Assembly: GCA_017462795.1 (NCBI GenBank)
Contig: JAFTQL010000035.1
Location: 62,360-126,359, forward strand
Length of the DNA: 64,000 nucleotides
Source of the DNA: Clostridia bacterium
Lineage (GTDB): Bacteria > Bacillota > Clostridia > Oscillospirales > CAG-272
Direction of reading: 5' to 3'
The notes under the pieces: model-generated
What the model saw: the letters and a program-made list of their open reading frames with translations, nothing else
What the model was told of the DNA's origin: nothing
The model's database searches: none
In this document: positions 2,502 to 47,246 of the stretch, in pieces
Numbering within the stretch: position 1 is the first letter of the stretch
Layout of the letters: the number at the start of each line of letters is the position of its first letter
Made by a program: the position numbers and the translations under genes

Positions 2502-4802
2502 TTAATAAGTCACCGTTGTTCTATCGTTCACTCGGATTTCTTTTCCGCTAACAAAAACGTATATTTCTTTTCCATTCAATGATTCTACAGTAACATTCTT
2601 ATTATCCAAGGTAATTTGTAGCTCACATCCACGCCAACTCAAGCGAACAGCTATATTCCGCCATGCTAAAGGGATATGAGGCTCAATTCTCAAAGTTTCT
2701 TCAAACACGCCTATTCCCGCAAACCCAAACACTGCAGTCTGCCAAATACCTCCGCAGTTTGCTGCGTGTATCCCCTCGTTGCAAAGAGTTGAATGCTCAC
2801 CGAAATCAGTATCAAGAGCACCCTTGAACAATCCGTGCGCTATATCGGTTTCTCCCAACCGCGCGGCAACGGTGGCAAAAGCTGAAAGAGACAGCGAGGA
2901 ATCGTGAATACATTTATCCTCGTAAAAATCGAAATTCTTTCTGATTATATCCGACGGAAATAAATCGGGCATCAGCGAAAAAAGCTGAATAAGGTCAGCC
3001 TGCTTGGACACCATAAGCCCACCTATCTCTCTGAGTGAATAATCTCTGTATATCAAACGGTTTATACCGCTGTTTTTATACTTTGATATATCTATCCGCT
3101 TAAGCGTAAGATAGGTATCGTTTTGAGGGATAAGTCCATCGTCGTTCGCTGTCGGTAAATACAGTCGGGGAAGCTTTTTGCCAATACCGTCCGCAAGATT
3201 TGCAAGCCCAAGTCTTTTGTCGAACGCATTGAAAGCCTCTGTATCTTCCGTCCTGAGTCTATCTATCTCATCAAGCGCCGTTCTGAGATTCCACGCTACT
3301 GCGTAGTTTGTAAACACGTCGTTGTCAACGTATTCCTTGTACTCGTCTGGTCCCGTTACCTGACGTATCTCATAGCGGTCCTTTTGTTCGTTGTATTCAA
3401 GCCTTGACAACCAAAATGCCGCCGTTTCAAACAGTATTTCAAGACCGTACTTCTTCATAAATCCACGGTCTCCCGTTACTTGTCCGTAGGAATATACTCC
3501 GTAAGCTACGTCACATACCACGTGCTGTTCTATATCGCCGCAGGTAACACGCCTTGGCGTATTGTCGGGGGAATAATTTTTGAATTCAGGACTTTGCTCG
3601 TCTCCGCTGACGCTTGCGGATTCCCAGGGATACATTGCCCCCACGTATCCGTATTTCCGAGCCTTTCTCCGTGCACCGTCAAGCGTGCGATATCTATAGA
3701 TACAGAGATTTCTCGCCGCCATTGGATTCGTATAGCTGAAAAACGGCAGATTGAATATCTCGCAGTCCCAAAAAACGTGACCCGCATATCCCATTCCTGT
3801 CAGCCCCTTTGCGGCAATACTCACTCTGTCGTCCTGCCATGGACACATTATCATCATGTGATACATAGCCAAACGGAGCTTAAGATTTTCAGATGCGTCA
3901 TCTGATTCTACAGAGATATCGCAAGTCCGCCAAAGGCTGTCCCACTCCTTTTCCGACTCTAAAAGCAGATATTCAAAATTCTTTTGGCATACGCTATCGG
4001 TTCTTTCTACTATATCCTCATCCCTACCCGTCCAATCTATATCGTTGGCGGTATAATACGTAGCGTACCTGATTATTCTCAGCTCGTCCCCCTTGGAAAG
4101 CTTTATCCGAACGGTGGAGGATACTATTCTTCGTTCTGTTGAATAGCGCTGTATTCCCTCCTGCTCTGCACCGTTTACGTATATCCTCATTTTTGAGCCT
4201 ACTCTGAACTGCGTACCCGCAATGGCTGCTCTTCCACCATACCACAGAAGGTCGTTATCAAGAACCGTCCGTTCCTCCTCAAAGGTATGCTGCGTTCCGT
4301 TTACCGTTATGCGTGCGTTTATAGAGCTTACCAGCTCCAATTCAAAATCACCCTCACTTACTATATCCGTTTCAAACATTGCAAGATTCTTTTGCGCCAT
4401 TGAGACGAATCGGCTATGCTTTACTAAAAGATCGCCTTCCATATCCTTGGGAGAATATCTATACTGATAAGTAAGCAATCCGCTTCTGACATTCAGCGAA
4501 CGTGAATATTCGGACGAATTTTTATGTAACGGAGATATTTTTTCCCCTTCCACAGCAATGGAAAGCGGCGTGACATCGGGAAGAGGGATAAGCTCCTCTT
4601 CCTCATGCGGCTGTTTGTCGTACAGCCCTGCTATTAACGTAAGTCTCGTTTGCTCGGGTATTTCCTCGCAAAACGCGCTTCTCATTCCCAGATATCCGTT
4701 GCCGAGACACATTACCGTCTCATATTTCTTCTGAGTATTTGCGGTGCAGTCACATTCTTCAAGAATGTAGGTGCTTTTTTCTTCGGTTGAACTAATGATC
4801 AT
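2502..4802 (-). CDS. GH65 glycoside phosphorylase (maltose/kojibiose/trehalose phosphorylase family)
   Basis: 766 aa. It has LGNGYLGMR near the N-terminus and a catalytic-acid region VTGPDEYKEYVDNDVFTN. It is immediately followed by a beta-phosphoglucomutase gene, the classic GH65 partner. Confidence 0.85.
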   Translation of the reverse strand: MIISSTEEKSTYILEECDCTANTQKKYETVMCLGNGYLGMRSAFCEEIPEQTRLTLIAGLYDKQPHEEEELIPLPDVTPLSIAVEGEKISPLHKNSSEYSRSLNVRSGLLTYQYRYSPKDMEGDLLVKHSRFVSMAQKNLAMFETDIVSEGDFELELVSSINARITVNGTQHTFEEERTVLDNDLLWYGGRAAIAGTQFRVGSKMRIYVNGAEQEGIQRYSTERRIVSSTVRIKLSKGDELRIIRYATYYTANDIDWTGRDEDIVERTDSVCQKNFEYLLLESEKEWDSLWRTCDISVESDDASENLKLRLAMYHMMIMCPWQDDRVSIAAKGLTGMGYAGHVFWDCEIFNLPFFSYTNPMAARNLCIYRYRTLDGARRKARKYGYVGAMYPWESASVSGDEQSPEFKNYSPDNTPRRVTCGDIEQHVVCDVAYGVYSYGQVTGDRGFMKKYGLEILFETAAFWLSRLEYNEQKDRYEIRQVTGPDEYKEYVDNDVFTNYAVAWNLRTALDEIDRLRTEDTEAFNAFDKRLGLANLADGIGKKLPRLYLPTANDDGLIPQNDTYLTLKRIDISKYKNSGINRLIYRDYSLREIGGLMVSKQADLIQLFSLMPDLFPSDIIRKNFDFYEDKCIHDSSLSLSAFATVAARLGETDIAHGLFKGALDTDFGEHSTLCNEGIHAANCGGIWQTAVFGFAGIGVFEETLRIEPHIPLAWRNIAVRLSWRGCELQITLDNKNVTVESLNGKEIYVFVSGKEIRVNDRTTVTY

Positions 4803-13879: not shown

Positions 13880-14008
13880 TCAAAGCTCTTCGATGCCTAC
13901 GGACATGTTGATGTCGTCAGCCTGTATACCGTTACTCAATGCAATGATATCCTTGCTTTCAAGAGCTATAGCGATCACAACGGGAGTTGTATATGTATTC
14001 TTTTTCAT
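13880..14008 (-). CDS. Small ORF A (42 aa), member of a three-copy peptide family
   Basis: Below the ORF-track size cutoff; own translation: MKKNTYTTPVVIAIALESKDIIALSNGIQADDINMSVGIEEL. AGGAG lies ~9 nt upstream. It shares Y-[TI]-x-P-x(9)-[KEQ]-D-I-[IM]-x-x-S with the ORFs at 30253-30399 and 41214-41354. Confidence 0.55.
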   Translation of the reverse strand: MKKNTYTTPVVIAIALESKDIIALSNGIQADDINMSVGIEEL

Positions 14009-14036
14009 AATCTTATTCTCCTTTTCCATATTAGGA

Positions 14037-30252: not shown

Positions 30253-30399
30253 TCAAAACGGCCATTGGTAAACACCGTAACCGGTGCTTGTGCCGTTGCT
30301 GTCATCAAGCGATAACGTACCGCCCGATGTCACCATAATGTCTTCCGTTTGTGTACAGATCAATGTGCACTCGGGTGAAATATATTCTTTCATATTCAT
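30253..30399 (-). CDS. Small ORF B (48 aa; 46 if started at the second ATG), member of the three-copy peptide family
   Basis: Own translation: MNMKEYISPECTLICTQTEDIMVTSGGTLSLDDSNGTSTGYGVYQWPF. AAGGA is upstream. The stop lies 14 nt before the start of 28904-30238. Confidence 0.55.
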   Translation of the reverse strand: MNMKEYISPECTLICTQTEDIMVTSGGTLSLDDSNGTSTGYGVYQWPF

Positions 30400-37708: not shown

Positions 37709-38416
37709 TTACTGTTTGGCTATCGCGTAGGAAACAAGCAGATCGGGAAAATTGACGGTCATTCCGTCAACGCCGCTATCATACGCAAGCTTCATCAGCT
37801 CAACGTCGGCAACGCCCCACGCCCGTACACTGTAACCCATCTCATGCCACGCCGATACCTTCTCTGCGGTAACATTCTCCGCCTGCGGACACAGCTGCTC
37901 TCCGCCTATCTCCTTCATTCTCGCAATAGCTTCGTCATCAAAATCAGCGGCAAGGTGTCCCACCCTGTATGAGGGACACAACGCCTTGAATGTCCTGATA
38001 CACTCAAACTTGAAGGAGGTCACCACTGTTTTTTCCCGCATATTGTACTTTTCAAGAAGCTCAAGAACCTCTTTTTCCGTTCCCGGCTCTTTAAGCTCGA
38101 TGGCAAAATTAATGTCGCGGAAGCCGAAATAACGCAAGAAGTCCTCAAACCTCACAATAATATCCTCGGTTGCCGTCTTGTAATTTCTGACCCTCATCTC
38201 CAGAAGCTCCGCATAGGTATAGTCTCCCACGCCTCCCGTCTCTCCGACCACACGCTCCAGAGTCTTATCATGAAACAGCACCAGAACTCCGTCCTTGGTC
38301 CGGCGCACGTCGGTCTCAATGCCGTTAGCGCCCAGCTTAAGTCCCAGATAAAAGGAACTCATAGTATTTTCGGGCGCGTATTCGCTTGCGCCCCTGTGTG
38401 CATACACCACAAACAT
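37709..38416 (-). CDS. Glycerophosphodiester phosphodiesterase (GDPD) family protein
   Basis: I prefer the ATG at 38416 (MFVVYAHRGASEYAPENT, with AAGAGG 8 nt upstream) over the track's TTG at 38437. GANGIETDV and VLFHDKTLERV. Confidence 0.8.
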   Translation of the reverse strand: MFVVYAHRGASEYAPENTMSSFYLGLKLGANGIETDVRRTKDGVLVLFHDKTLERVVGETGGVGDYTYAELLEMRVRNYKTATEDIIVRFEDFLRYFGFRDINFAIELKEPGTEKEVLELLEKYNMREKTVVTSFKFECIRTFKALCPSYRVGHLAADFDDEAIARMKEIGGEQLCPQAENVTAEKVSAWHEMGYSVRAWGVADVELMKLAYDSGVDGMTVNFPDLLVSYAIAKQ

Positions 38417-38433
38417 AATCAAAACCTCTTTGC

Positions 38434-39357
38434 TCAATAATTGTATGTCCTGTAAGACCTTCGGGCGAGATATCGGTCTATAAGCCGCTGTATTCCCCGC
38501 ATGTCCGACGGGGACGCAAATATCTCAGGGAAATTGGTAGTAGCGCCGTTATAGCAATAATTCTTCTTGCGGTATGCCTCAAGGTCAAATCTCGGCTCAA
38601 TCGAAGTATCGCCGCAAAAGGAATAGTCCTGTCCCTCGGCGCGCTTGCCCGTGATGGCGCAGTACAGCATAAGAGACGTTATGTATCCCGACAAAAGGTT
38701 GGGATGGAATCCGTCCTCCTCGGTCTTACTGATTATAAAGCTGTTTTTATCATAGCTCATAACGGCATCGGGAACGGCTGTTCTTCCCGTAATGATATCG
38801 GATACCAAGCCGCCCCAGTCAACAACGGTAATGCCTTTATCCTCAAGCCCCTTCAGGCTGTTCAGAATTTTTTTCTGCCTTACCCTGTACGCTGATATCC
38901 CGTAGGATGCCACATTACAGAGATAAACAAATTTTACGTTCGGATTTTCACCGCGGAAGATATTTGTTATTTTTTCTATATTCTCCGCAAACTTGTCATC
39001 GGAGCAGCCTCTGCTTCCCGCCGAGATCACAACGTAATCAAATTTGCGCTCTGTCAGATAGCTCAGGTGATCCACCCCGTCACATCCACGATCCGCACAG
39101 CAGTTTCCACCAAACATATCATCCAGAGTGTGTCCCCCAAAGGTCCACGAGGTGACCTCCACCTCTTCTCCGTTGGCTCGGCAAAGCTGATAAAAATAGC
39201 CTTTATCGCCCGTGCGTTCCTTTTGACCGAGTACCTTCTGAATTATCTTGAACACGGTCTGACTGTAATGGACAAAGGAATTACCTATAAAGATAACACT
39301 TTTTCCATCAAGAGATACCGATGTGCCCTTATCTTCTGCCGATCCTGTATCTATCAT
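38434..39357 (-). CDS. SGNH-like hydrolase-fold protein (DUF4886-like), cytoplasmic
   Basis: 307 aa. VIFIGNSFVHYS (block I-like) and EDGFHPNLLSGY (block V-like). The family assignment is from memory of the motif pattern only. Confidence 0.55.
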   Translation of the reverse strand: MIDTGSAEDKGTSVSLDGKSVIFIGNSFVHYSQTVFKIIQKVLGQKERTGDKGYFYQLCRANGEEVEVTSWTFGGHTLDDMFGGNCCADRGCDGVDHLSYLTERKFDYVVISAGSRGCSDDKFAENIEKITNIFRGENPNVKFVYLCNVASYGISAYRVRQKKILNSLKGLEDKGITVVDWGGLVSDIITGRTAVPDAVMSYDKNSFIISKTEEDGFHPNLLSGYITSLMLYCAITGKRAEGQDYSFCGDTSIEPRFDLEAYRKKNYCYNGATTNFPEIFASPSDMRGIQRLIDRYLARRSYRTYNY

Positions 39358-39417
39358 ATCCTTTTATACATCTCCTTTGACTTATTTACTCGTATTTCGG
39401 GATACGAAATGCTGAAT

Positions 39418-41214
39418 TTAAAATGAAATATCCACGATCTCGGGACAGTGATCGGAGGCGATAAGCGCATAGGTGCAGGTCACTGTTGCAAAACCGTTTA
39501 CTGTAATATTGCCGTATTTCCATACCTGGTCAATGGAATCGGCATATTTTTTTGTGGGACGGCTCCATGAGATATAGGTCTCATAGAGAGTGCTGTACTC
39601 AGCATCCTTGTGATGTCCCGATGAATCGTTCTTCAATGCAGCCTCATCCCATGCGGATACCAGACCGCCACCACGGAGTATATCGGCAGGGGCGGAGGAA
39701 ACAGTGCAGTTGAGGTCGCCGCCCACTATGAGAGGAAGCTCGGCATAGGAGGCATTTGAGCGTATAGTACCGATAAGCTCCAAAAGCTGTCCCGCCTCGG
39801 AAAGGCGCGCCGCGTCTCCCTCAAGATCACTTGTCCAGTAAAAGTGAGTTGACATGGCAATAAAGCACTTGCCCGTAGCGCGCACACGCATGACAGCCCA
39901 GGTCACCGACTTGGAATTCACGTCATTCAACCCCTCATAAAGCAGGTATCCGCTATCCACGATCTCAAGCTTATCGGAACGGTAAAACAGGGGAGTAAAA
40001 TTGGATGAAACTCCGTTGACCCTTACCTCGGACTAGCCCAGCTCTGTCAGCTTGCTTATCAGACTGCCGCTTCTGACGTTGGAGCTGAATTCCTGAAAAC
40101 CGATCACATCGGGAGAATACGCCTCAAGCATCTCAAGCTGCATTCTCATACGCACGCTCTCGCTGTAGCTCTCCCATCCGTACATGTTGTAAAACATGGT
40201 GCGGATGTCGCCTGTGCTTGCAAGAGTGCTTTCCGTTCTGCGCTCAAAGCCCTCGGTGGCGTCAACTGTATCCGAACGCTCGGAGACCGTGTAGTCCTTA
40301 TTACCACCGGAGGGAATGAGCGTCTTTGTTACATAATCGTAAAGCTCGTCATACGCGGCAAAACCGTTTGCCGAAAGCTCCAGCTTACCGTCCGATGCCT
40401 TTACGCTGTACTCATTCTTCCCGGGGGGCGAGGAGGAACGGGAGGTATTTCCTATCAGTATCTCATGCTCCCCTGCCGTGCCGGAGTCATCCGAAATATT
40501 CAGAAGTACACCGTAATTGTTCATCAGCCAGTATCTCAGACTGTAGGCAAAAAAGTGTTCATTTACATCCGCGTTCTTGGGAATGACCATGTCGTATTCA
40601 CACAGCTCCGTACCCAATATCTTGACACTGCCTATTCCGTATTTTACCCTTTGATGGACGGTGTGGGCAGAGGAAACGGTGAGAGTACTCCCCGCCTTCA
40701 TCTGAGCGGACATTATATTGTTCATAAAATACTGTACCGCCGTGGTGCACGCCTCCGCGCTCTTTCCGCAGATAACGACCTTGTTACCGACAATGCCGAT
40801 ATAGTAGTCGTTCATCTTTTCAAGCGTTTCGGCTATCTGCTGTGACTCTGCCCACTGTGTAACGCCCACAAGTATGGCGGGCTCGTCGGCAAGCACATCA
40901 CTGTAGTATCTGTCCGTGGACATCTGCAGCAGTACTCCCGTGCCGTTCTTTATCATCTTGGACATAGCGCCGATGACGGATACAAATGCGTCATCCGATG
41001 AAAGAGAGGACGCATAGTAAATGCTGTAGTCGCTCTGACCGTTTTCAACCACCGTCAGAGAACTTCCCGCAAAATCGGAAGAATCGGTGGACGTACCGCC
41101 CACCGTTTCTCCCGTATATTCTGATTGACCGAAGCAACCGACAAGACACACGGCTGTCATAGCCATCGCAAGAATGACGCAGATCAAACTATATACAGTG
41201 TGTTTCCGCATCAT
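39418..41214 (-). pseudogene. Cassette C exported EEP-fold phosphoesterase lipoprotein, interrupted by one in-frame TAG (40033-40035)
   Basis: ORFs 40033-41214 and 39418-39960 are in the same frame, and the 72 nt between them are open. The read-through translation ..VIGFQEFSSNVRSGSLISKLTELG*SEVRVNGVSSNFTPLFYRSDKLEIVDSGY.. aligns with the paralogue 41389-42585, ..ILAFQEFGKHYRKQEFLGGLEALGYTEVGNG..LTPLFYRADTLKVVACGY.., with the stop opposite Tyr. Lipobox CLVGC|FG. C-terminal SDHCPEIVD. Confidence 0.75.
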
Positions 41215-41354
41215 CAGAGCCTCATCAGATCGTCTATACTTATACCTGTGATATCATTGTCACTGTAAGCGCTCGTTGCCAGTGACGCGGTGATTATATC
41301 CTGCATATCAAAGATCTTTGCGTCTGCTATAGGACAAATATATTTCTTTTTCAT
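41214..41354 (-). CDS. Small ORF C (46 aa), member of the three-copy peptide family
   Basis: Own translation: MKKKYICPIADAKIFDMQDIITASLATSAYSDNDITGISIDDLMRL. GGAG is 8 nt upstream. Its TGA overlaps the ATG of the downstream lipoprotein gene (TGATG), which indicates translational coupling. Confidence 0.55.
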   Translation of the reverse strand: MKKKYICPIADAKIFDMQDIITASLATSAYSDNDITGISIDDLMRL

Positions 41355-41388
41355 TTTTATTCTCCGTTCAATTAAAGATTAGATTAAA

Positions 41389-42585
41389 TTAATTAATGGA
41401 AAAATCCGTTATCTTCGGACTGTGATCCGAGGAGAGACAAGCGTATCTGTCGGTAACTGTCGCGAAAAGCTCCACCAACAGTCCGTCCTGCCATACATGG
41501 TCTATAGACCATTCGCCGCTTTTTGAGGAATGGGAGGGACAGGTGATGAACAGCTCTGCCTCCGTGTCCCATACGGCATACGCGCCGTGACCGTTGACGG
41601 AGTTCAGCGCGCATCCCGAATCGTCAGCCGCGCTTTGTACTCTCACAAGACCGCTCTCAGCGAGTATGTCAAGCGGCTCTGTGTCTCCTCTGCCGTAGCT
41701 GCAGTTGAGGTCGCCTCCGACTATCATCGGCAAATTGCCGTGCTCCGCGCGGATATCCGCCAGCAGCTCTGTCAGCTCTACGGCATTTGAGCACCTGGTT
41801 TTATTGGCAACTCCCGCCTCAAGCTCGGGATCATTCCACATAAAGTGAGTACACATGGCGATAAATCTTTTTTTGTCGTCATTGCGCTCAAATACCGCCC
41901 ATGTTACCGATTTGGAGCTTACGTCGTTAGCACCGCCGAACAGTCTGTATCCGCACGCGACTACCTTCAAGGTGTCCGCTCTGTAAAACAGGGGGGTGAG
42001 GTTAGTTCCCTTTTCGTTGCGCAGCTCGCCGTTTCCCACCTCGGTATAACCAAGCGCCTCCAAGCCACCAAGGAACTCCTGCTTGCGGTAATGCTTGCCG
42101 AATTCCTGAAAGGCAAGTATATCGGCATTGTAGGATCTCAGCAGGCTGAGCTGAAAGGGCTGACGCTCGGCGGGCGTGGTGTTTGCCTTTTTGTTGTTCC
42201 AGCCGTATACGTTATAGTTCATATAACGTACCCGACCCGCCCGCTTTGCTCCGCAGGTCCTCAGAGAAACGCCGTCGCCCGACAACGATGTAATACCGTC
42301 AAGCGATTCCTTTGTCCGCAGCTCCTCACGGAGAGCCGACATTGCCGCCTCGTAGCCGTAGGCAGAGCCCGCGCATATGTATACGCGATCACCCTCGGAG
42401 CGGATCACATATCCGTCACCCTCGGGCATATCCGCATCGCCGATGTATATATCGCCGTCCGCCCCACTGTCGCATATTATTTCGGAAGTTATTCCCTGAT
42501 ATTCGGCTATCGCCGCCCGCAATTCCGACGCGGTATAGCGCTCCTCAAAGGACGCCTCTGCCGGAATTATTATCCGTTGATCCAT
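41389..42585 (-). CDS. Cassette C signal-less EEP-fold phosphoesterase with N-terminal accessory domain
   Basis: 398 aa. The N-terminal ~100 aa (..DIYIGDAD..DRVYICAGS..) resemble the accessory domains of 12510-13760 and 39418-41214. Motifs ILAFQEFG, GGDLNCS and SSDHSPKITDF. The start overlaps the stop of 42585-43796 (TAATG). Confidence 0.8.
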   Translation of the reverse strand: MDQRIIIPAEASFEERYTASELRAAIAEYQGITSEIICDSGADGDIYIGDADMPEGDGYVIRSEGDRVYICAGSAYGYEAAMSALREELRTKESLDGITSLSGDGVSLRTCGAKRAGRVRYMNYNVYGWNNKKANTTPAERQPFQLSLLRSYNADILAFQEFGKHYRKQEFLGGLEALGYTEVGNGELRNEKGTNLTPLFYRADTLKVVACGYRLFGGANDVSSKSVTWAVFERNDDKKRFIAMCTHFMWNDPELEAGVANKTRCSNAVELTELLADIRAEHGNLPMIVGGDLNCSYGRGDTEPLDILAESGLVRVQSAADDSGCALNSVNGHGAYAVWDTEAELFITCPSHSSKSGEWSIDHVWQDGLLVELFATVTDRYACLSSDHSPKITDFSIN

Positions 42586-43796
42586 TATGCAACAGTTTCA
42601 ACAGTAATATCAGCTGCTGTGTTACCACTGACAGTGATCTTATATGTGTCTCCTACCTGTTCGCCATTTTCCATATGGTAAGCTACTGCGTAGAAGGTAT
42701 ATGTGGTATTCACTTTCAGACCCGTCAGCTTCATACAATACAGATAATCTCCACCGAGCCACCAAGCATGACATGTATTATCGTCTGCAATAATACTCTT
42801 GTATACCGTACCACAAGCTATGGGATCAAGAGTCTTATTGTCAGTGGAAAGCTTAAATCCTATATTTTCGCTTGCAAGGTTTTGGGTATTCAGCAATCCA
42901 ACCAAACGAAGTGTATATTCATCATTCTCTACTGCAGTTGCCTGCACACCGGCAATTTTGGTTACGGTGTCTGTTTTTTTGCCATTGAGTGTAACAGTAG
43001 TCAGGTTGTCAGATGATACAGCATAGAAATCATTACTTATATCTTTTTCATCATCCAAAGTAAATTCACCGCAGTTAGTAAAATAAGCGTTGAATCCAGC
43101 CTTAAGCTGTACATAGGCAAATCCTATACCTATATCGCACGAACCGTTTGCGATAGCATCCTTTACATCTTCAGTCAAAGGCACAGCAATGTGATAAATT
43201 GCAACCGCAGGGGTACTGTCAGACGCTATATCGTCATTTCTTCCGATTAAAATACCATTTTCCATGGCTGACGCTTTGTTTACAGAAGCATAAATCTTAG
43301 GTCCCCATGCACCGGACCAACCTCTATCCTGCAAAGTCAGTTTATCATATGTTAAATGATTTGTATACTTGCCATCTAAATCATCATCTTCACTGTAAGC
43401 AGCGTAATGCACTCTTAAAACAATTTTATTATCAACTTCACTATCCGCAGTATTAAAGTCAACGTATATAAATTCTTCGGCGTGTTGATGTGCGTTTGTA
43501 TAATCACTATTGTATTTTTTCAAATAATTCATAGTCGTTTTTATATACAAGTAATCGCCATCATGAGCTACGGCAAATGAGTCTCCATTGGTAGAATAAC
43601 CATTCACTGCCGTTCCCGCTACTGTGTTATTCCACACATAAGAAGCTCCACTGTATTCGGGATTCAACTGCTCCGCAGTCATTCTGTCTCCCTGCGCGAC
43701 CTCAATAGCGGGAGATGCCGCTGTCCAAGCCATTGCAGGTACGCTTAACGCAAAGAGCGAAGCGCAAACAAGTAAAATAGAAATAATTTTTTTCAT
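42585..43796 (-). CDS. Cassette C free member: secreted protein, N-terminal domain paralogous to 43818-45590, C-terminal shared module
   Basis: 403 aa. Signal peptide ..LSVPAMA|WT. HDGDYLYIKTTM and IYHIAVPLTEDVKDAIANGSCDIGIGFAYVQ..YFTNCGEFTLD match HAGDYLYIYTRM and IFHIAVPLSEANKTALANGSCNIGVGFAYIQ..YYTNCGEFTLD. The C-terminal module reads ..TLRLVGLLN..IGFKLS..GTVYKSIIADD..GDYLYCMKLTGL..TYTFYAVAYH. Confidence 0.75.
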   Translation of the reverse strand: MKKIISILLVCASLFALSVPAMAWTAASPAIEVAQGDRMTAEQLNPEYSGASYVWNNTVAGTAVNGYSTNGDSFAVAHDGDYLYIKTTMNYLKKYNSDYTNAHQHAEEFIYVDFNTADSEVDNKIVLRVHYAAYSEDDDLDGKYTNHLTYDKLTLQDRGWSGAWGPKIYASVNKASAMENGILIGRNDDIASDSTPAVAIYHIAVPLTEDVKDAIANGSCDIGIGFAYVQLKAGFNAYFTNCGEFTLDDEKDISNDFYAVSSDNLTTVTLNGKKTDTVTKIAGVQATAVENDEYTLRLVGLLNTQNLASENIGFKLSTDNKTLDPIACGTVYKSIIADDNTCHAWWLGGDYLYCMKLTGLKVNTTYTFYAVAYHMENGEQVGDTYKITVSGNTAADITVETVA

Positions 43797-43817
43797 GTCA
43801 ATTCTCCTTTGATTTTT

Positions 43818-45590
43818 TTATTTTTCGGAGGTCTTTTTTGCTTTTCCAAAGCATGCCGCCGCAATAAGCACAACAGCCATCACCATTGCCATGCCGCCGA
43901 TGGAAGAATTACATCCGCCCTCCGCGTCATCAGTGCTGTTGGTGTCAGTCGCCTGAACATCGCCGCTTGTTTCCACATCCGAGTCGCCCGCGGTCGTTTC
44001 CTCGGCATTCGTGTCGCTCGGAACGGAGGGTACTGTGGACTTATTAGCCACAAAGTCGGCATAAGAGGCTGTTATAAACTCCTCAAATTTGGGCATTACA
44101 AGCTTCATTCCGTTCATATTGAGATGGGAAACATCTGTATTGGTCAGGCAATACTGAGAGCGGAATGTCTCGCTTGTCATGTCAACGCCCGAAACAGCGG
44201 GATCGTTTGCCTTGAAGCAATATACTCCCTGTGCCTCGCAGACACTTATCATGGCGTTGGCATAATCCGCAGACTTAAGTCCGATGTCGTTTGTACCGCC
44301 AAAGTTCCAGACAGTTGTAAACATTATCATAGCGTCGGGGTACTTCTCCTGCAGACCGTCAATGAGAACATTCAGCGCTCCCATAAAGGTCTTGGGGTCG
44401 GTGCTGTCCACTGTTCCCAGCGGTACTTCATTGTTATAGTCATTGCGTCCGCCGTCTACGATAATAAGGTCTGCGTCGTTATCCGCCATGCCCTTATAAC
44501 GGTCAACCATGGGAGTGGGATCAACGGTGGGAGCATAGCTTGATACCATTCCTCCGTTCATGCCGTAGTTCTTGAACTTCCAATAGTATTTGTCAGAAAG
44601 AAGCTTGGGCCATACGTAATCATTACCCATGGTGTGTCCCGCAAAGTAACTGTCTCCAATAATATTTACGGTAAGATCCTCAAGAGCCATGTCATAGGCG
44701 CGGCTTCTGTCCGCCTCTACCCACGCCTTCATCTGAGCGGCGATCTGCTCGGGAGTTACCTCGGCGATGTCCGCGCTTCCGATAACATTATCGGGAGTTG
44801 TGGTATTCGTACCCTTTTTAAGGGTAACAGTGGTAAGCTTATCCTCTGTTATATCGTCGTAAAAATCGTTACCTACGTTGTCGGCGTTGTCAAGAGTGAA
44901 CTCGCCGCAGTTGGTGTAGTATCTCTCAGCACCCGCTGTCTTGCACTGGATGTAGGCAAAGCCCACGCCGATATTGCAGGAACCGTTTGCGAGAGCCGTC
45001 TTGTTCGCCTCGCTGAGCGGTACCGCGATATGGAAGATAGCGTCCTCGCTGTTCTTGTTGCTGTACTCGTTACGTCCGAAGAGGATACCCGCCGCAAGAC
45101 CGCTATCCTTGTTTACGGTGGCGTTATAGCCGGGTCCCCATTCGTCGTTCTGACGCGCTCTGTCAACGACACCCTCTTTATAGTAGGATATATTTGTTCC
45201 GTCAAGCACATAAGGACCGTAATTGGGCTTGGTGATCATAATGTAATCCACCTTGTTGTCGCCCTGAGTAAGGTCAACGTAAATAAATTTCTCTACCTGT
45301 GTACGGTAAGCATAGGGAGGAGTCATCCTTGTGTATATGTACAGATAATCTCCCGCGTGTGTTATTTTAAATTCGCCCACGCCCTCATATGCGCCGTAGT
45401 TAGTTCCCGCAACGGTAACCGCGCCGCTCCAGTCATACGCCGCGTCACCCTCAAGCTCGGCGTATATCTGCTCATATGTCATTCCGTTGCTCTGCGGAAC
45501 CTCCACAGCGGGGGTTGTCCACGCCATTGCGGGAACGCTCAGCAAGAGCAAGGAGATACAGGCAAGTATCAAAGATATAGCTTTTTTCAT
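43818..45590 (-). CDS. Cassette C anchored member: secreted protein with shared N-terminal domain + SGNH esterase domain + C-terminal GGCNS-TM-KAKK tail
   Basis: 590 aa. Signal peptide ..LSVPAMA|WT. SGNH blocks VNIIGDSYFAG, GMNGGMV, IVDGGRNDY and DVSHLNMNGMK. C-terminus: AEGGCNSSIGGMAMVMAVVLIAAACFGKAKKTSEK. Confidence 0.8.
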   Translation of the reverse strand: MKKAISLILACISLLLLSVPAMAWTTPAVEVPQSNGMTYEQIYAELEGDAAYDWSGAVTVAGTNYGAYEGVGEFKITHAGDYLYIYTRMTPPYAYRTQVEKFIYVDLTQGDNKVDYIMITKPNYGPYVLDGTNISYYKEGVVDRARQNDEWGPGYNATVNKDSGLAAGILFGRNEYSNKNSEDAIFHIAVPLSEANKTALANGSCNIGVGFAYIQCKTAGAERYYTNCGEFTLDNADNVGNDFYDDITEDKLTTVTLKKGTNTTTPDNVIGSADIAEVTPEQIAAQMKAWVEADRSRAYDMALEDLTVNIIGDSYFAGHTMGNDYVWPKLLSDKYYWKFKNYGMNGGMVSSYAPTVDPTPMVDRYKGMADNDADLIIVDGGRNDYNNEVPLGTVDSTDPKTFMGALNVLIDGLQEKYPDAMIMFTTVWNFGGTNDIGLKSADYANAMISVCEAQGVYCFKANDPAVSGVDMTSETFRSQYCLTNTDVSHLNMNGMKLVMPKFEEFITASYADFVANKSTVPSVPSDTNAEETTAGDSDVETSGDVQATDTNSTDDAEGGCNSSIGGMAMVMAVVLIAAACFGKAKKTSEK

Positions 45591-47217: not shown

Positions 47218-47246
47218 ATTATATATGTTTTTTACAAACGTGTCAA
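47218..47246 (-). promoter_or_regulatory. Consensus sigma-A promoter for cassette C
   Basis: Minus strand reads TTGTTGACA-cgtttgtaaaaaacata-TATAAT, a perfect -35 and -10 with 17-nt spacing, ~125 nt upstream of the 47093 start. Confidence 0.7.

Follow-up and report, generated by a model that had tools for sequence, protein, structure and literature searches.

A small peptide gene between two EEP genes in Clostridia: a candidate orphan precursor of the LppA type

In a 64,000-nt stretch of Clostridia bacterium DNA (contig JAFTQL010000035.1, positions 62,360 to 126,359; hereafter the window), a 46-codon open reading frame (ORF) lies between two genes of the EEP family (PF03372), and its stop codon shares a base with the start codon of the EEP lipoprotein gene behind it. 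The initial annotation named this ORF copy C of a small-ORF family and proposed that it is co-translated in fixed stoichiometry with the exported EEP enzyme, as a partner subunit, an inhibitor or immunity peptide, or a chaperone rather than a free bacteriocin. The locus raises the question of whether so short an ORF is a gene at all and, if it is, what its product does beside two EEP enzymes. We find a conserved gene that keeps its slot between EEP genes in five lineages, and we lean towards reading it as an orphan precursor resembling LppA, the substrate of the linear polyphosphorylated peptide (LPP) system.

Conservation of copy C and of its place between EEP genes

The ORF at 41214-41354 of the minus strand and the single base that its TGA shares with the ATG of the EEP lipoprotein gene were both confirmed (Table 1). 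The GGAG reported 8 nt upstream of its start is also present, with a measured spacer of 7 nt. The grouping of three small ORFs, copies A, B and C, into one family holds as well: the copies share the pattern M-K-K-x-Y-x-x-P-(10)-D-I-I-x-x-S, and a family hidden Markov model (HMM) run over the window matches exactly these three.

An exhaustive HMMER search of 1.84 billion proteins, using a profile of the three window copies only and a cut-off of E ≤ 1e-3, recovered 115 proteins, nearly all of them 31-66 aa long and aligned from residue 1. Copy C and its ortholog P0153 share 58% identity, and most syntenic neighbours of copy C are 54-68% identical to their orthologs (full range 37-81%). Comparison of copy C with its ortholog over 45 aligned codons revealed 14 identical codons, 12 synonymous and 19 non-synonymous changes, with saturated dS; copy B and its ortholog in locus L008 gave a dN/dS of 0.14. 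Copy C is annotated as a gene independently in NCBI, ENA and Logan. Because the profile finds homologs, the identity between orthologs matches that of the neighbouring genes and dS is saturated, copy C is a conserved protein-coding gene. Pfam and NCBIfam assigned no family to the three window peptides or to ten canonical members, giving only faint sub-threshold matches to StsA and lasso leader models, and Rfam at a permissive threshold returned no match in window positions 38000-44000. Word-indexed homolog searches, whether with copy C alone or with the alignment of the three copies, retrieved nothing beyond the peptides of the window itself, and the same kind of search with a 113-member alignment returned only 49 matches.

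The position of the gene is conserved together with its sequence. A trio consisting of a short EEP without a signal peptide, the peptide and an EEP lipoprotein of about 598 aa, usually followed by GDPD genes, was found in five lineages (the window, L091-L096, L104/L105, L106 and L100). The long EEPs of the four other lineages are 44-61% identical to that of the window lineage (44-68% over all pairs); for the short EEPs, identity over all pairs is 45-77%. The short EEPs are in turn paralogous to the long ones, at 32-43% identity; in the window, the short EEP shares 35% identity with the C-terminal two thirds of its long paralog. Once the lipoprotein starts had been re-read, the spacing from peptide stop to lipoprotein ATG was -1 nt in the window (TGATG), +4 nt in L096 (TAAaacgATGATG), -4 nt in L104 (ATGA), -8 nt in L106 (ATGAGTAA) and about +13 nt in L100, and the gaps between the short EEP gene and the peptide gene were 10-34 nt. 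The stop/start coupling, whose conservation in orthologous loci had been left to be checked, is thus found as a tight junction in all five lineages, and the suggested functional link to the EEP protein is supported by the recurrence of the association with EEPs that are themselves so divergent. A contig scan with the N-terminal part of the EEP lipoprotein found no relative; a metagenome contig scan with five long EEP orthologs found two loci (one 5′-truncated), neither of them with a peptide.

The subfamily found in these trios carries sequence signatures of its own. Residues Y5, P8, D19 and S24 are all invariant across its seven EEP-associated members, and the tail motif [IV]-S-[IM]-[DEN]-D-[LIF] is specific to it. 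The tails of copy A and its ortholog end in the related M-S-V-G-I-E-E-L, and copy A precedes an EEP lipoprotein gene by 119-123 nt in the window and in the syntenic loci L097-L099. The slot of copy B is likewise kept in the syntenic locus L008.

Within the junction itself, GAGG lies 5 nt upstream of the lipoprotein ATG, inside the last codons of copy C, and can serve the lipoprotein gene as its ribosome-binding site. The protein begins MMRKHTVY, with another in-frame ATG at 41211. In the window the lipoprotein gene is split by a single in-frame TAG at 40035-40033 (minus strand), which leaves 40033..41214 as the ORF of its upstream piece. Two other assemblies of the same organism, matching the window at 99.95-99.97% over the common stretches (for L001, 3 mismatches in 10,690 nt), have TAT (Tyr) at this place and an intact gene of 598 aa, so the assumption of a repaired lipoprotein made in the initial annotation was justified. 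What looks like a "pseudogene" here reflects either strain variation at a single base or a mistake in the assembly. The annotation of the locus is corrected accordingly: the small ORFs are real genes, and the EEP "pseudogene" is one base away from a gene that is intact elsewhere.

The peptide family and its probable maturation cassette

A scan of one genome per species yielded more than 600 matches to the family pattern, of which 306 were confirmed and 79 loci kept, mainly from Ruminococcus flavefaciens, other Oscillospiraceae and Lachnospiraceae. Members share the consensus MKKxYIxPExExxxFxxEDIITTSG, behind which comes a variable tail 6-39 residues long. Its conserved N-terminus has the pattern K-x-Y-x-x-P...F-[E/D]-[T/S/A]-[E/K]-D-I-I-T-T-S, in which the canonical F-[E/D]-[T/S/A] occupies residues 15-17; no sequence in the 113-member alignment departs from the Pro or from Ser24, and at least 90% of members keep Y5 and D19. 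The tails are acidic and rich in G, D, S, E and N, with 0.2% Cys. A literature search with peptide strings such as DIITTS found no paper printing sequences of the family.

Copy C follows this plan. Its leader-like region holds Y5-x-x-P8, a motif of the type bound by a RiPP recognition element (RRE; RiPP, a peptide made by ribosomes and modified after translation), followed by F15-D16-M17, D19 and S24, the last a candidate phospho-acceptor. F15-D16-M17 stands where canonical members have the F-E-T cleavage motif: copy C continues from F-D-M into Q-D-I-I-T-A-S24, and canonical members from F15-[E/D]-[T/S/A]17 into E-D-I-I-T-T-S24. The peptide has no signal peptide.

A compact cassette of genes accompanies the peptide in 22 of the 79 Clostridial genome loci and, with a single exception, lies downstream of it; of the 54 loci in which the downstream sequence extends for 4 kb or more, 18 carry the cassette. 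The cassette genes, which lie within about 0.05-2.2 kb of the peptide, encode an HprK/ScmC-like P-loop protein (kinase-like), a PqqD protein (PF05402) with lasso_PqqD models as its best NCBIfam matches, a soluble signal peptidase of the SipW/archaeal type, an MsbA-like ABC exporter without a peptidase domain (it aligns to bacteriocin_ABC only from model position 152 onward) and a PF14907 nucleotidyltransferase-like protein. With the HMM of the three window copies, peptides adjacent to a cassette score 16-35 bits, which ties the window copies to that set. In four loci (L018, L029, L036 and L063) the cassette is reduced to PqqD and PF14907 genes after the peptide; neither an HprK-like nor a signal-peptidase-like gene was detected in the stretch covered. 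A literature search on PF14907 found nothing specific.

This cassette is the LPP system of Popov et al. (Nat Commun 2026, PMC13381572). In their account, the precursor LppA has the consensus YxxPxVLxHQxIxFETxxS; LppB is an RRE that binds YxxP; LppK adds several phosphates to core Ser3 of LppA; LppS cleaves behind F(-3)E(-2)T(-1), but only if the leader is presented to it by LppB; LppD is the exporter of the product; and LppN was inactive in the heterologous host (PMC13381572). Their study centred on Bacilli and included few Clostridial peptidases, in minor clusters whose precursors are listed as "ND" (Supplementary Data 1). Its domain tables count 27 phosphatase-type domains in the neighbourhoods of 126 cluster-1 peptidases. 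The peptidase of L041 and the LppS of P. alginolyticus share 30% identity (E=4e-9).

The resemblance extends from the cassette to the precursors. LppA and the Clostridial peptides are both small, with a conserved N-terminus and a hypervariable C-terminus; the LppA motif YxxPx[V/L/I/A], as defined in PMC13381572, is present in copy C as Y5-I-C-P8-I-A10; the canonical Clostridial F-E/D-T/S/A resembles F(-3)E(-2)T(-1), with a conserved Ser shortly after it in both; and homologs of copy C are encoded, as LppA is, beside an HprK-like kinase, a discrete PqqD RRE, a SipW-type peptidase, an MsbA-like exporter and a PF14907 protein. The differences concern spacing, composition and setting. The distance from Y to F is +10 in the Clostridial family and +13 in LppA, and the conserved Ser follows the F-E-T position by 7 residues in the former and by 3 in the latter. 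Clostridial tails are acidic, whereas those of LppA are rich in Gly, Asn, Lys and Pro. Copy C belongs to a phosphoesterase operon without a cassette within 64 kb, whereas LppA is encoded in a capsular-polysaccharide locus. Taken together, these features suggest that the family is a sequence-distinct Clostridial counterpart of LppA, unannotated in Pfam and NCBIfam.

Several observations weigh against this assignment. The family HMM and the window-copy HMM score no higher than 6.7 bits on seven Bacilli LppA sequences (PMC13381572, Supplementary Data 1); because the HMMs detect no Bacilli LppA, the label "LppA-like" rests on cassette context and short motifs. Neither the window nor any of the orthologous contigs, which reach 25 kb, contains a homolog of LppB, LppK, LppS, LppD or LppN. 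In copy C, F-D-M takes the place of the canonical F-E/D-T/S/A, and Met at -1 is unusual for a cut of the signal-peptidase type. The window holds six EEP paralogs, so some of the adjacency between peptides and EEPs could come from gene density alone, an explanation opposed for copy C by the synteny kept in five lineages. Lastly, for the Clostridial members we infer modification, cleavage, export and EEP interaction alike from sequence.

The missing cassette beside copy C has a parallel in a metagenome-assembled genome of R. flavefaciens (CAMORW01), in which the L036 copy adjoins PqqD and PF14907 genes and the loci of the L052 and L079 copies have no cassette gene. Since copies with and without a cassette coexist there, we infer that processing of orphan copies in trans, by a cassette elsewhere in the genome, is plausible. 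Prochlorosins are dispersed RiPP precursors served by one maturation system, and the Clostridial peptides resemble them in their many copies per genome, conserved leader, hypervariable core and location mostly away from the enzymes. They differ from prochlorosins in that each copy occupies a fixed slot beside a particular secreted or phosphoesterase protein gene, and this slot is kept between lineages.

Other classes of modified peptide were considered as well. Lasso precursors served by B1 (PqqD), especially those of the phosphorylated paeninodin type, have the same leader motif, [Y/W]xxPx[L/V/I/F/A]; the cassette PqqD best matches the TbiB1 structure in addition to the lasso models; and in paeninodin-like and pseudomycoidin clusters the tailoring enzymes are an HprK-like kinase and a PF14907 transferase (PMC7533575, PMC13381572). 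No lasso cyclase (Asn-synthetase-like) or B2 transglutaminase-type cysteine protease was found among the annotated cassette genes of L033, L041 and L078, nor among the Pfam matches around the three window copies. Family-wide, D/E at positions 7-9 after Ser24 is only weakly enriched (about 30% against a 19% background). Lasso precursors have Thr at -2, a small residue at core position 1 and Asp or Glu at core position 7-9; a hypothetical cut after S24 of copy C would leave T22 at -3 and A23 at -2, with a core starting with Leu and bearing Asp at core position 8. The lasso reading was set aside in view of the weak D/E enrichment, the lack of a cyclase among the genes annotated in these loci and the lack of a consistent Gly1 and Asp8-9 core signature. 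The Cys-dependent RiPPs (lanthi-, sacti-, ranthi- and thiopeptides) do not fit a copy C tail without Cys and family tails so poor in it, and a double-glycine-leader bacteriocin does not fit the absence of GG from copy C and of a C39 peptidase domain from the cassette ABC proteins; across the family, Gly occurs at each of the two positions after Ser24 in only about 40-45% of members.

Possible roles of the peptide

The account that we consider most probable, with moderate confidence, is that copy C is an orphan LppA-like precursor gene, translated within a phosphoesterase operon, whose product is processed, exported and acts with the EEP pair. In outline, copy C would be translated from the polycistronic mRNA of the phosphoesterase operon, and ribosomes ending at its TGA would restart on the lipoprotein ATG by termination-reinitiation. 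The Y5-x-x-P8 leader would be bound by an LppB-like RRE of the PqqD type encoded elsewhere in the genome, an HprK-like kinase would phosphorylate Ser24, and an LppS-like protease of the signal-peptidase type would remove the leader, after residue 17 or nearer Ser24. An MsbA-like, LppD-like pump would then export an acidic phosphopeptide of roughly 22-29 residues ending in ...GISIDDL. Its action on the EEP enzymes is the most speculative step: it would plausibly be a cognate ligand or inhibitor mimicking a phosphodiester substrate, or a substrate of the cytoplasmic EEP paralog. Without a signal sequence, the peptide could meet the lipoprotein outside the cell only if exported; otherwise it would meet the signal-less EEP in the cytoplasm.

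Part of the evidence would also suit an unmodified 46-mer that works in fixed ratio with the downstream or upstream EEP as a subunit, a pre-export inhibitor or immunity factor, or a chaperone. This is what the overlapping or nearly abutting stop and start codons in five lineages, the conserved synteny of the trio, a tail motif specific to the EEP-associated subfamily and the lack of a maturation cassette in the window or in orthologous contigs would lead one to expect, and the upstream EEP, having no signal peptide, is an available cytoplasmic partner. However, conservation is strongest in the YxxP...S leader, which is common to peptides encoded beside RRE, kinase, peptidase and exporter genes and is needless for a pure EEP partner; the peptide has no signal sequence while the EEP to which it is coupled is a lipoprotein; and, across the family, the neighbours are unrelated to EEPs. 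We therefore regard an unmodified partner as unlikely, if far from negligible, and a stoichiometric subunit role as less likely than an orphan LppA-like precursor. Of the fixed-stoichiometry proposal in the initial annotation, the coupling and the link to EEP stand, whereas the subunit role is weakened by the RiPP-type leader, the mismatch of compartments and the tie of the family to the upstream gene. The partner could equally be the upstream signal-less EEP, because the close neighbour is usually upstream across the family: a same-strand gene ends within 40 nt upstream of the peptide gene in 66 of 93 cases and starts within 40 nt downstream in 12 of 97 (loci compared, window included). The proviso "rather than a free bacteriocin" would depend on the biological role of LPPs, which is stated as unknown (PMC13381572).

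At the opposite extreme, the product could be an exported RiPP, antimicrobial or signalling, that has nothing to do with its neighbours, the EEP slot being a mere site of expression. The family's tie to an export and maturation cassette, its hypervariable tails, typical of diversifying secreted peptides, and its many scattered copies per genome are consistent with this, but we consider it improbable, given that five lineages, at 44-61% protein identity, retain the same EEP slot together with a subfamily tail motif, and that copies A and B likewise keep their slots in orthologous loci; incidental placement would be expected to be less stable. A regulatory upstream ORF, whose translation alone delivers ribosomes to the lipoprotein start and whose product has no function, would explain the TGATG and ATGA-type overlaps and the GAGG embedded in the 3′ end of the ORF. 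It is very improbable in view of amino-acid conservation along the whole ORF with synonymous change saturated, the hundreds of family members found in unrelated contexts, and the 119-123 nt that separate copy A from its downstream gene. Hardly credible is a chance ORF in an intergenic gap, for which its shortness and the lack of a Pfam or NCBIfam match could be cited; the 115 homologs, the conservation between orthologs, the saturated dS and the three independent gene calls contradict it.

Should the orphan-precursor reading hold, it would imply a much larger, sequence-distinct Clostridial branch of LPPs without a covering Pfam or NCBIfam model, most of whose precursors are "orphans" at fixed positions beside particular protein genes, and the EEP-locked subfamily would offer a concrete phosphopeptide/phosphoesterase pair bearing on the role of LPP peptides. 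A bolder proposal, which we hold doubtful, is that the LPP-type peptides of gut and rumen Clostridia are cognate partners of specific secreted or phosphoester-cleaving proteins and not free antibiotics, each of hundreds of LppA-like genes being paired with one neighbouring protein gene and the variable tail encoding the pairing. On that proposal the product of the EEP-locked subfamily, and so of copy C, would be a polyphospho-Ser peptide acting as inhibitor or regulator of the two paralogous EEP phosphodiesterases or trimmed by them, which would be the first biological function for the LPP class. LPP precursors have been known since 2026, and a phosphoesterase trio with an orphan precursor is not described in the literature that we searched. 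The case introduces no novel principle; its value is as a concrete way to approach the function of a new RiPP class.

Neighbouring genes and other members of the family

The features of the window discussed here are collected in Table 1. The promoter-like site listed there is the probable start of an operon comprising genes for the solute-binding protein, a GDSL protein, a 403-aa protein, the short EEP, peptide C, the EEP lipoprotein, a DUF4886 protein and two GDPD proteins. The six EEP paralogs all lie within 12510-42585 of the minus strand, and the same stretch also has two GDPD genes, a GDSL lipase, a DUF4886 protein, a GH16 enzyme and a solute-binding protein; it looks like a locus for degrading a phosphodiester-linked polymer or glycan.

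Table 1. Positions of copy C, its signals and related features in the window
Feature	Position	Strand	Remarks
Copy C coding sequence, ATG start, 46 aa and TGA	41214..41354	-	MKKKYICPIADAKIFDMQDIITASLATSAYSDNDITGISIDDLMRL
GGAG, Shine-Dalgarno-like	41362..41365	-	7-nt spacer to ATG at 41354; read from sequence
TGA stop of copy C	41214..41216	-	Base 41214 is the A of the EEP lipoprotein ATG
Leader-like conserved region, copy C residues 1-24	41283..41354	-	Invariant columns and motif comparison with LppA (PMC13381572)
Variable acidic tail, copy C residues 25-46, candidate core	41217..41282	-	Terminal G-I-S-I-D-D-L is the subfamily motif
Long EEP (PF03372) lipoprotein gene, 598 codons	39418..41214	-	Signal peptide and lipobox ...LVGC
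Short EEP paralog, 398 aa, without signal peptide	41389..42585	-	Stop codon 34 nt upstream of copy C start
Promoter-like site, perfect TTGACA-17-TATAAT	47218..47246	-	Upstream of solute-binding-protein gene
Family copy A	13880..14029	-	Probable start MKKNTY at 14008
Family copy B	30253..30399	-	Start MKEY at 30393 as called in NCBI

Of the two other window copies, copy A begins 7 nt beyond the end of a 439-aa gene and is followed, 119 nt on, by a gene for a 416-aa EEP lipoprotein, and copy B overlaps the start of a 453-aa gene, with an EEP gene next. Copy B is part of an array that is syntenic in L008 and runs AraC, GH16, EEP, 488 aa, 491 aa, peptide, 453/697 aa, EEP. The 491-aa and 453-aa flanks have no Pfam match and share a domain with parts of large proteins of L023, L047 and L075, the 491-aa flank also with L037. 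Tails of the copy B subfamily end in ...GYGVY(Q/A)WPF or ...YGVITW (window 30253-30399; L008:6001-6156).

Canonical members follow genes for large proteins (median 682 aa; those examined have signal peptides), often by 0-30 nt, as after L036:200-2359, L057:4365-5987 and L031:1417-4059 (loci L012-L090). About half of these upstream proteins have in common a C-terminal domain, some 280 aa long (GASLSLDGDIGVNFYM ... ALYxYxxAAxxY), whose end is 1-7 residues short of the stop codon; it has no Pfam match and, when sought beside the window copies, was absent there. Downstream genes often encode small Thr/Ser/Glu-rich proteins, mostly lipoproteins, that end in ...IELPFVPV(E/G), for example L033:6185-6640, L044:6139-6606, L031:4415-4822 and L047:6229-6915. 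Motifs resembling this ending close the C-termini of many canonical peptides and occur in 11 of 44 downstream genes, and the ending may be a shared docking motif. The association between LP-motif tails and the upstream C-terminal domain is modest (18/41 against 13/51).

Other family members adjoin unrelated proteins, including DUF4886 and Big_2 proteins and proteins without a Pfam match. In L064, from a Bacteroidaceae bin, the tails of the peptides at 2666-2836 and 3115-3261 are rich in Cys (...GGGGCSPQCQNVCIPNCEVVG and ...GCGKDCPTNCGMICTNDCKTVVHS), whereas tails elsewhere are Cys-free, and the locus also has HprK-, PqqD- and S26-like genes. In a glycoside-hydrolase locus, the peptide P0031 (L101:7001-7138) follows a 937-aa Big_2 protein and overlaps the start of an 809-aa gene, which has no Pfam match, by 4 nt, so the EEP subfamily is not alone in being tightly coupled to a downstream gene.

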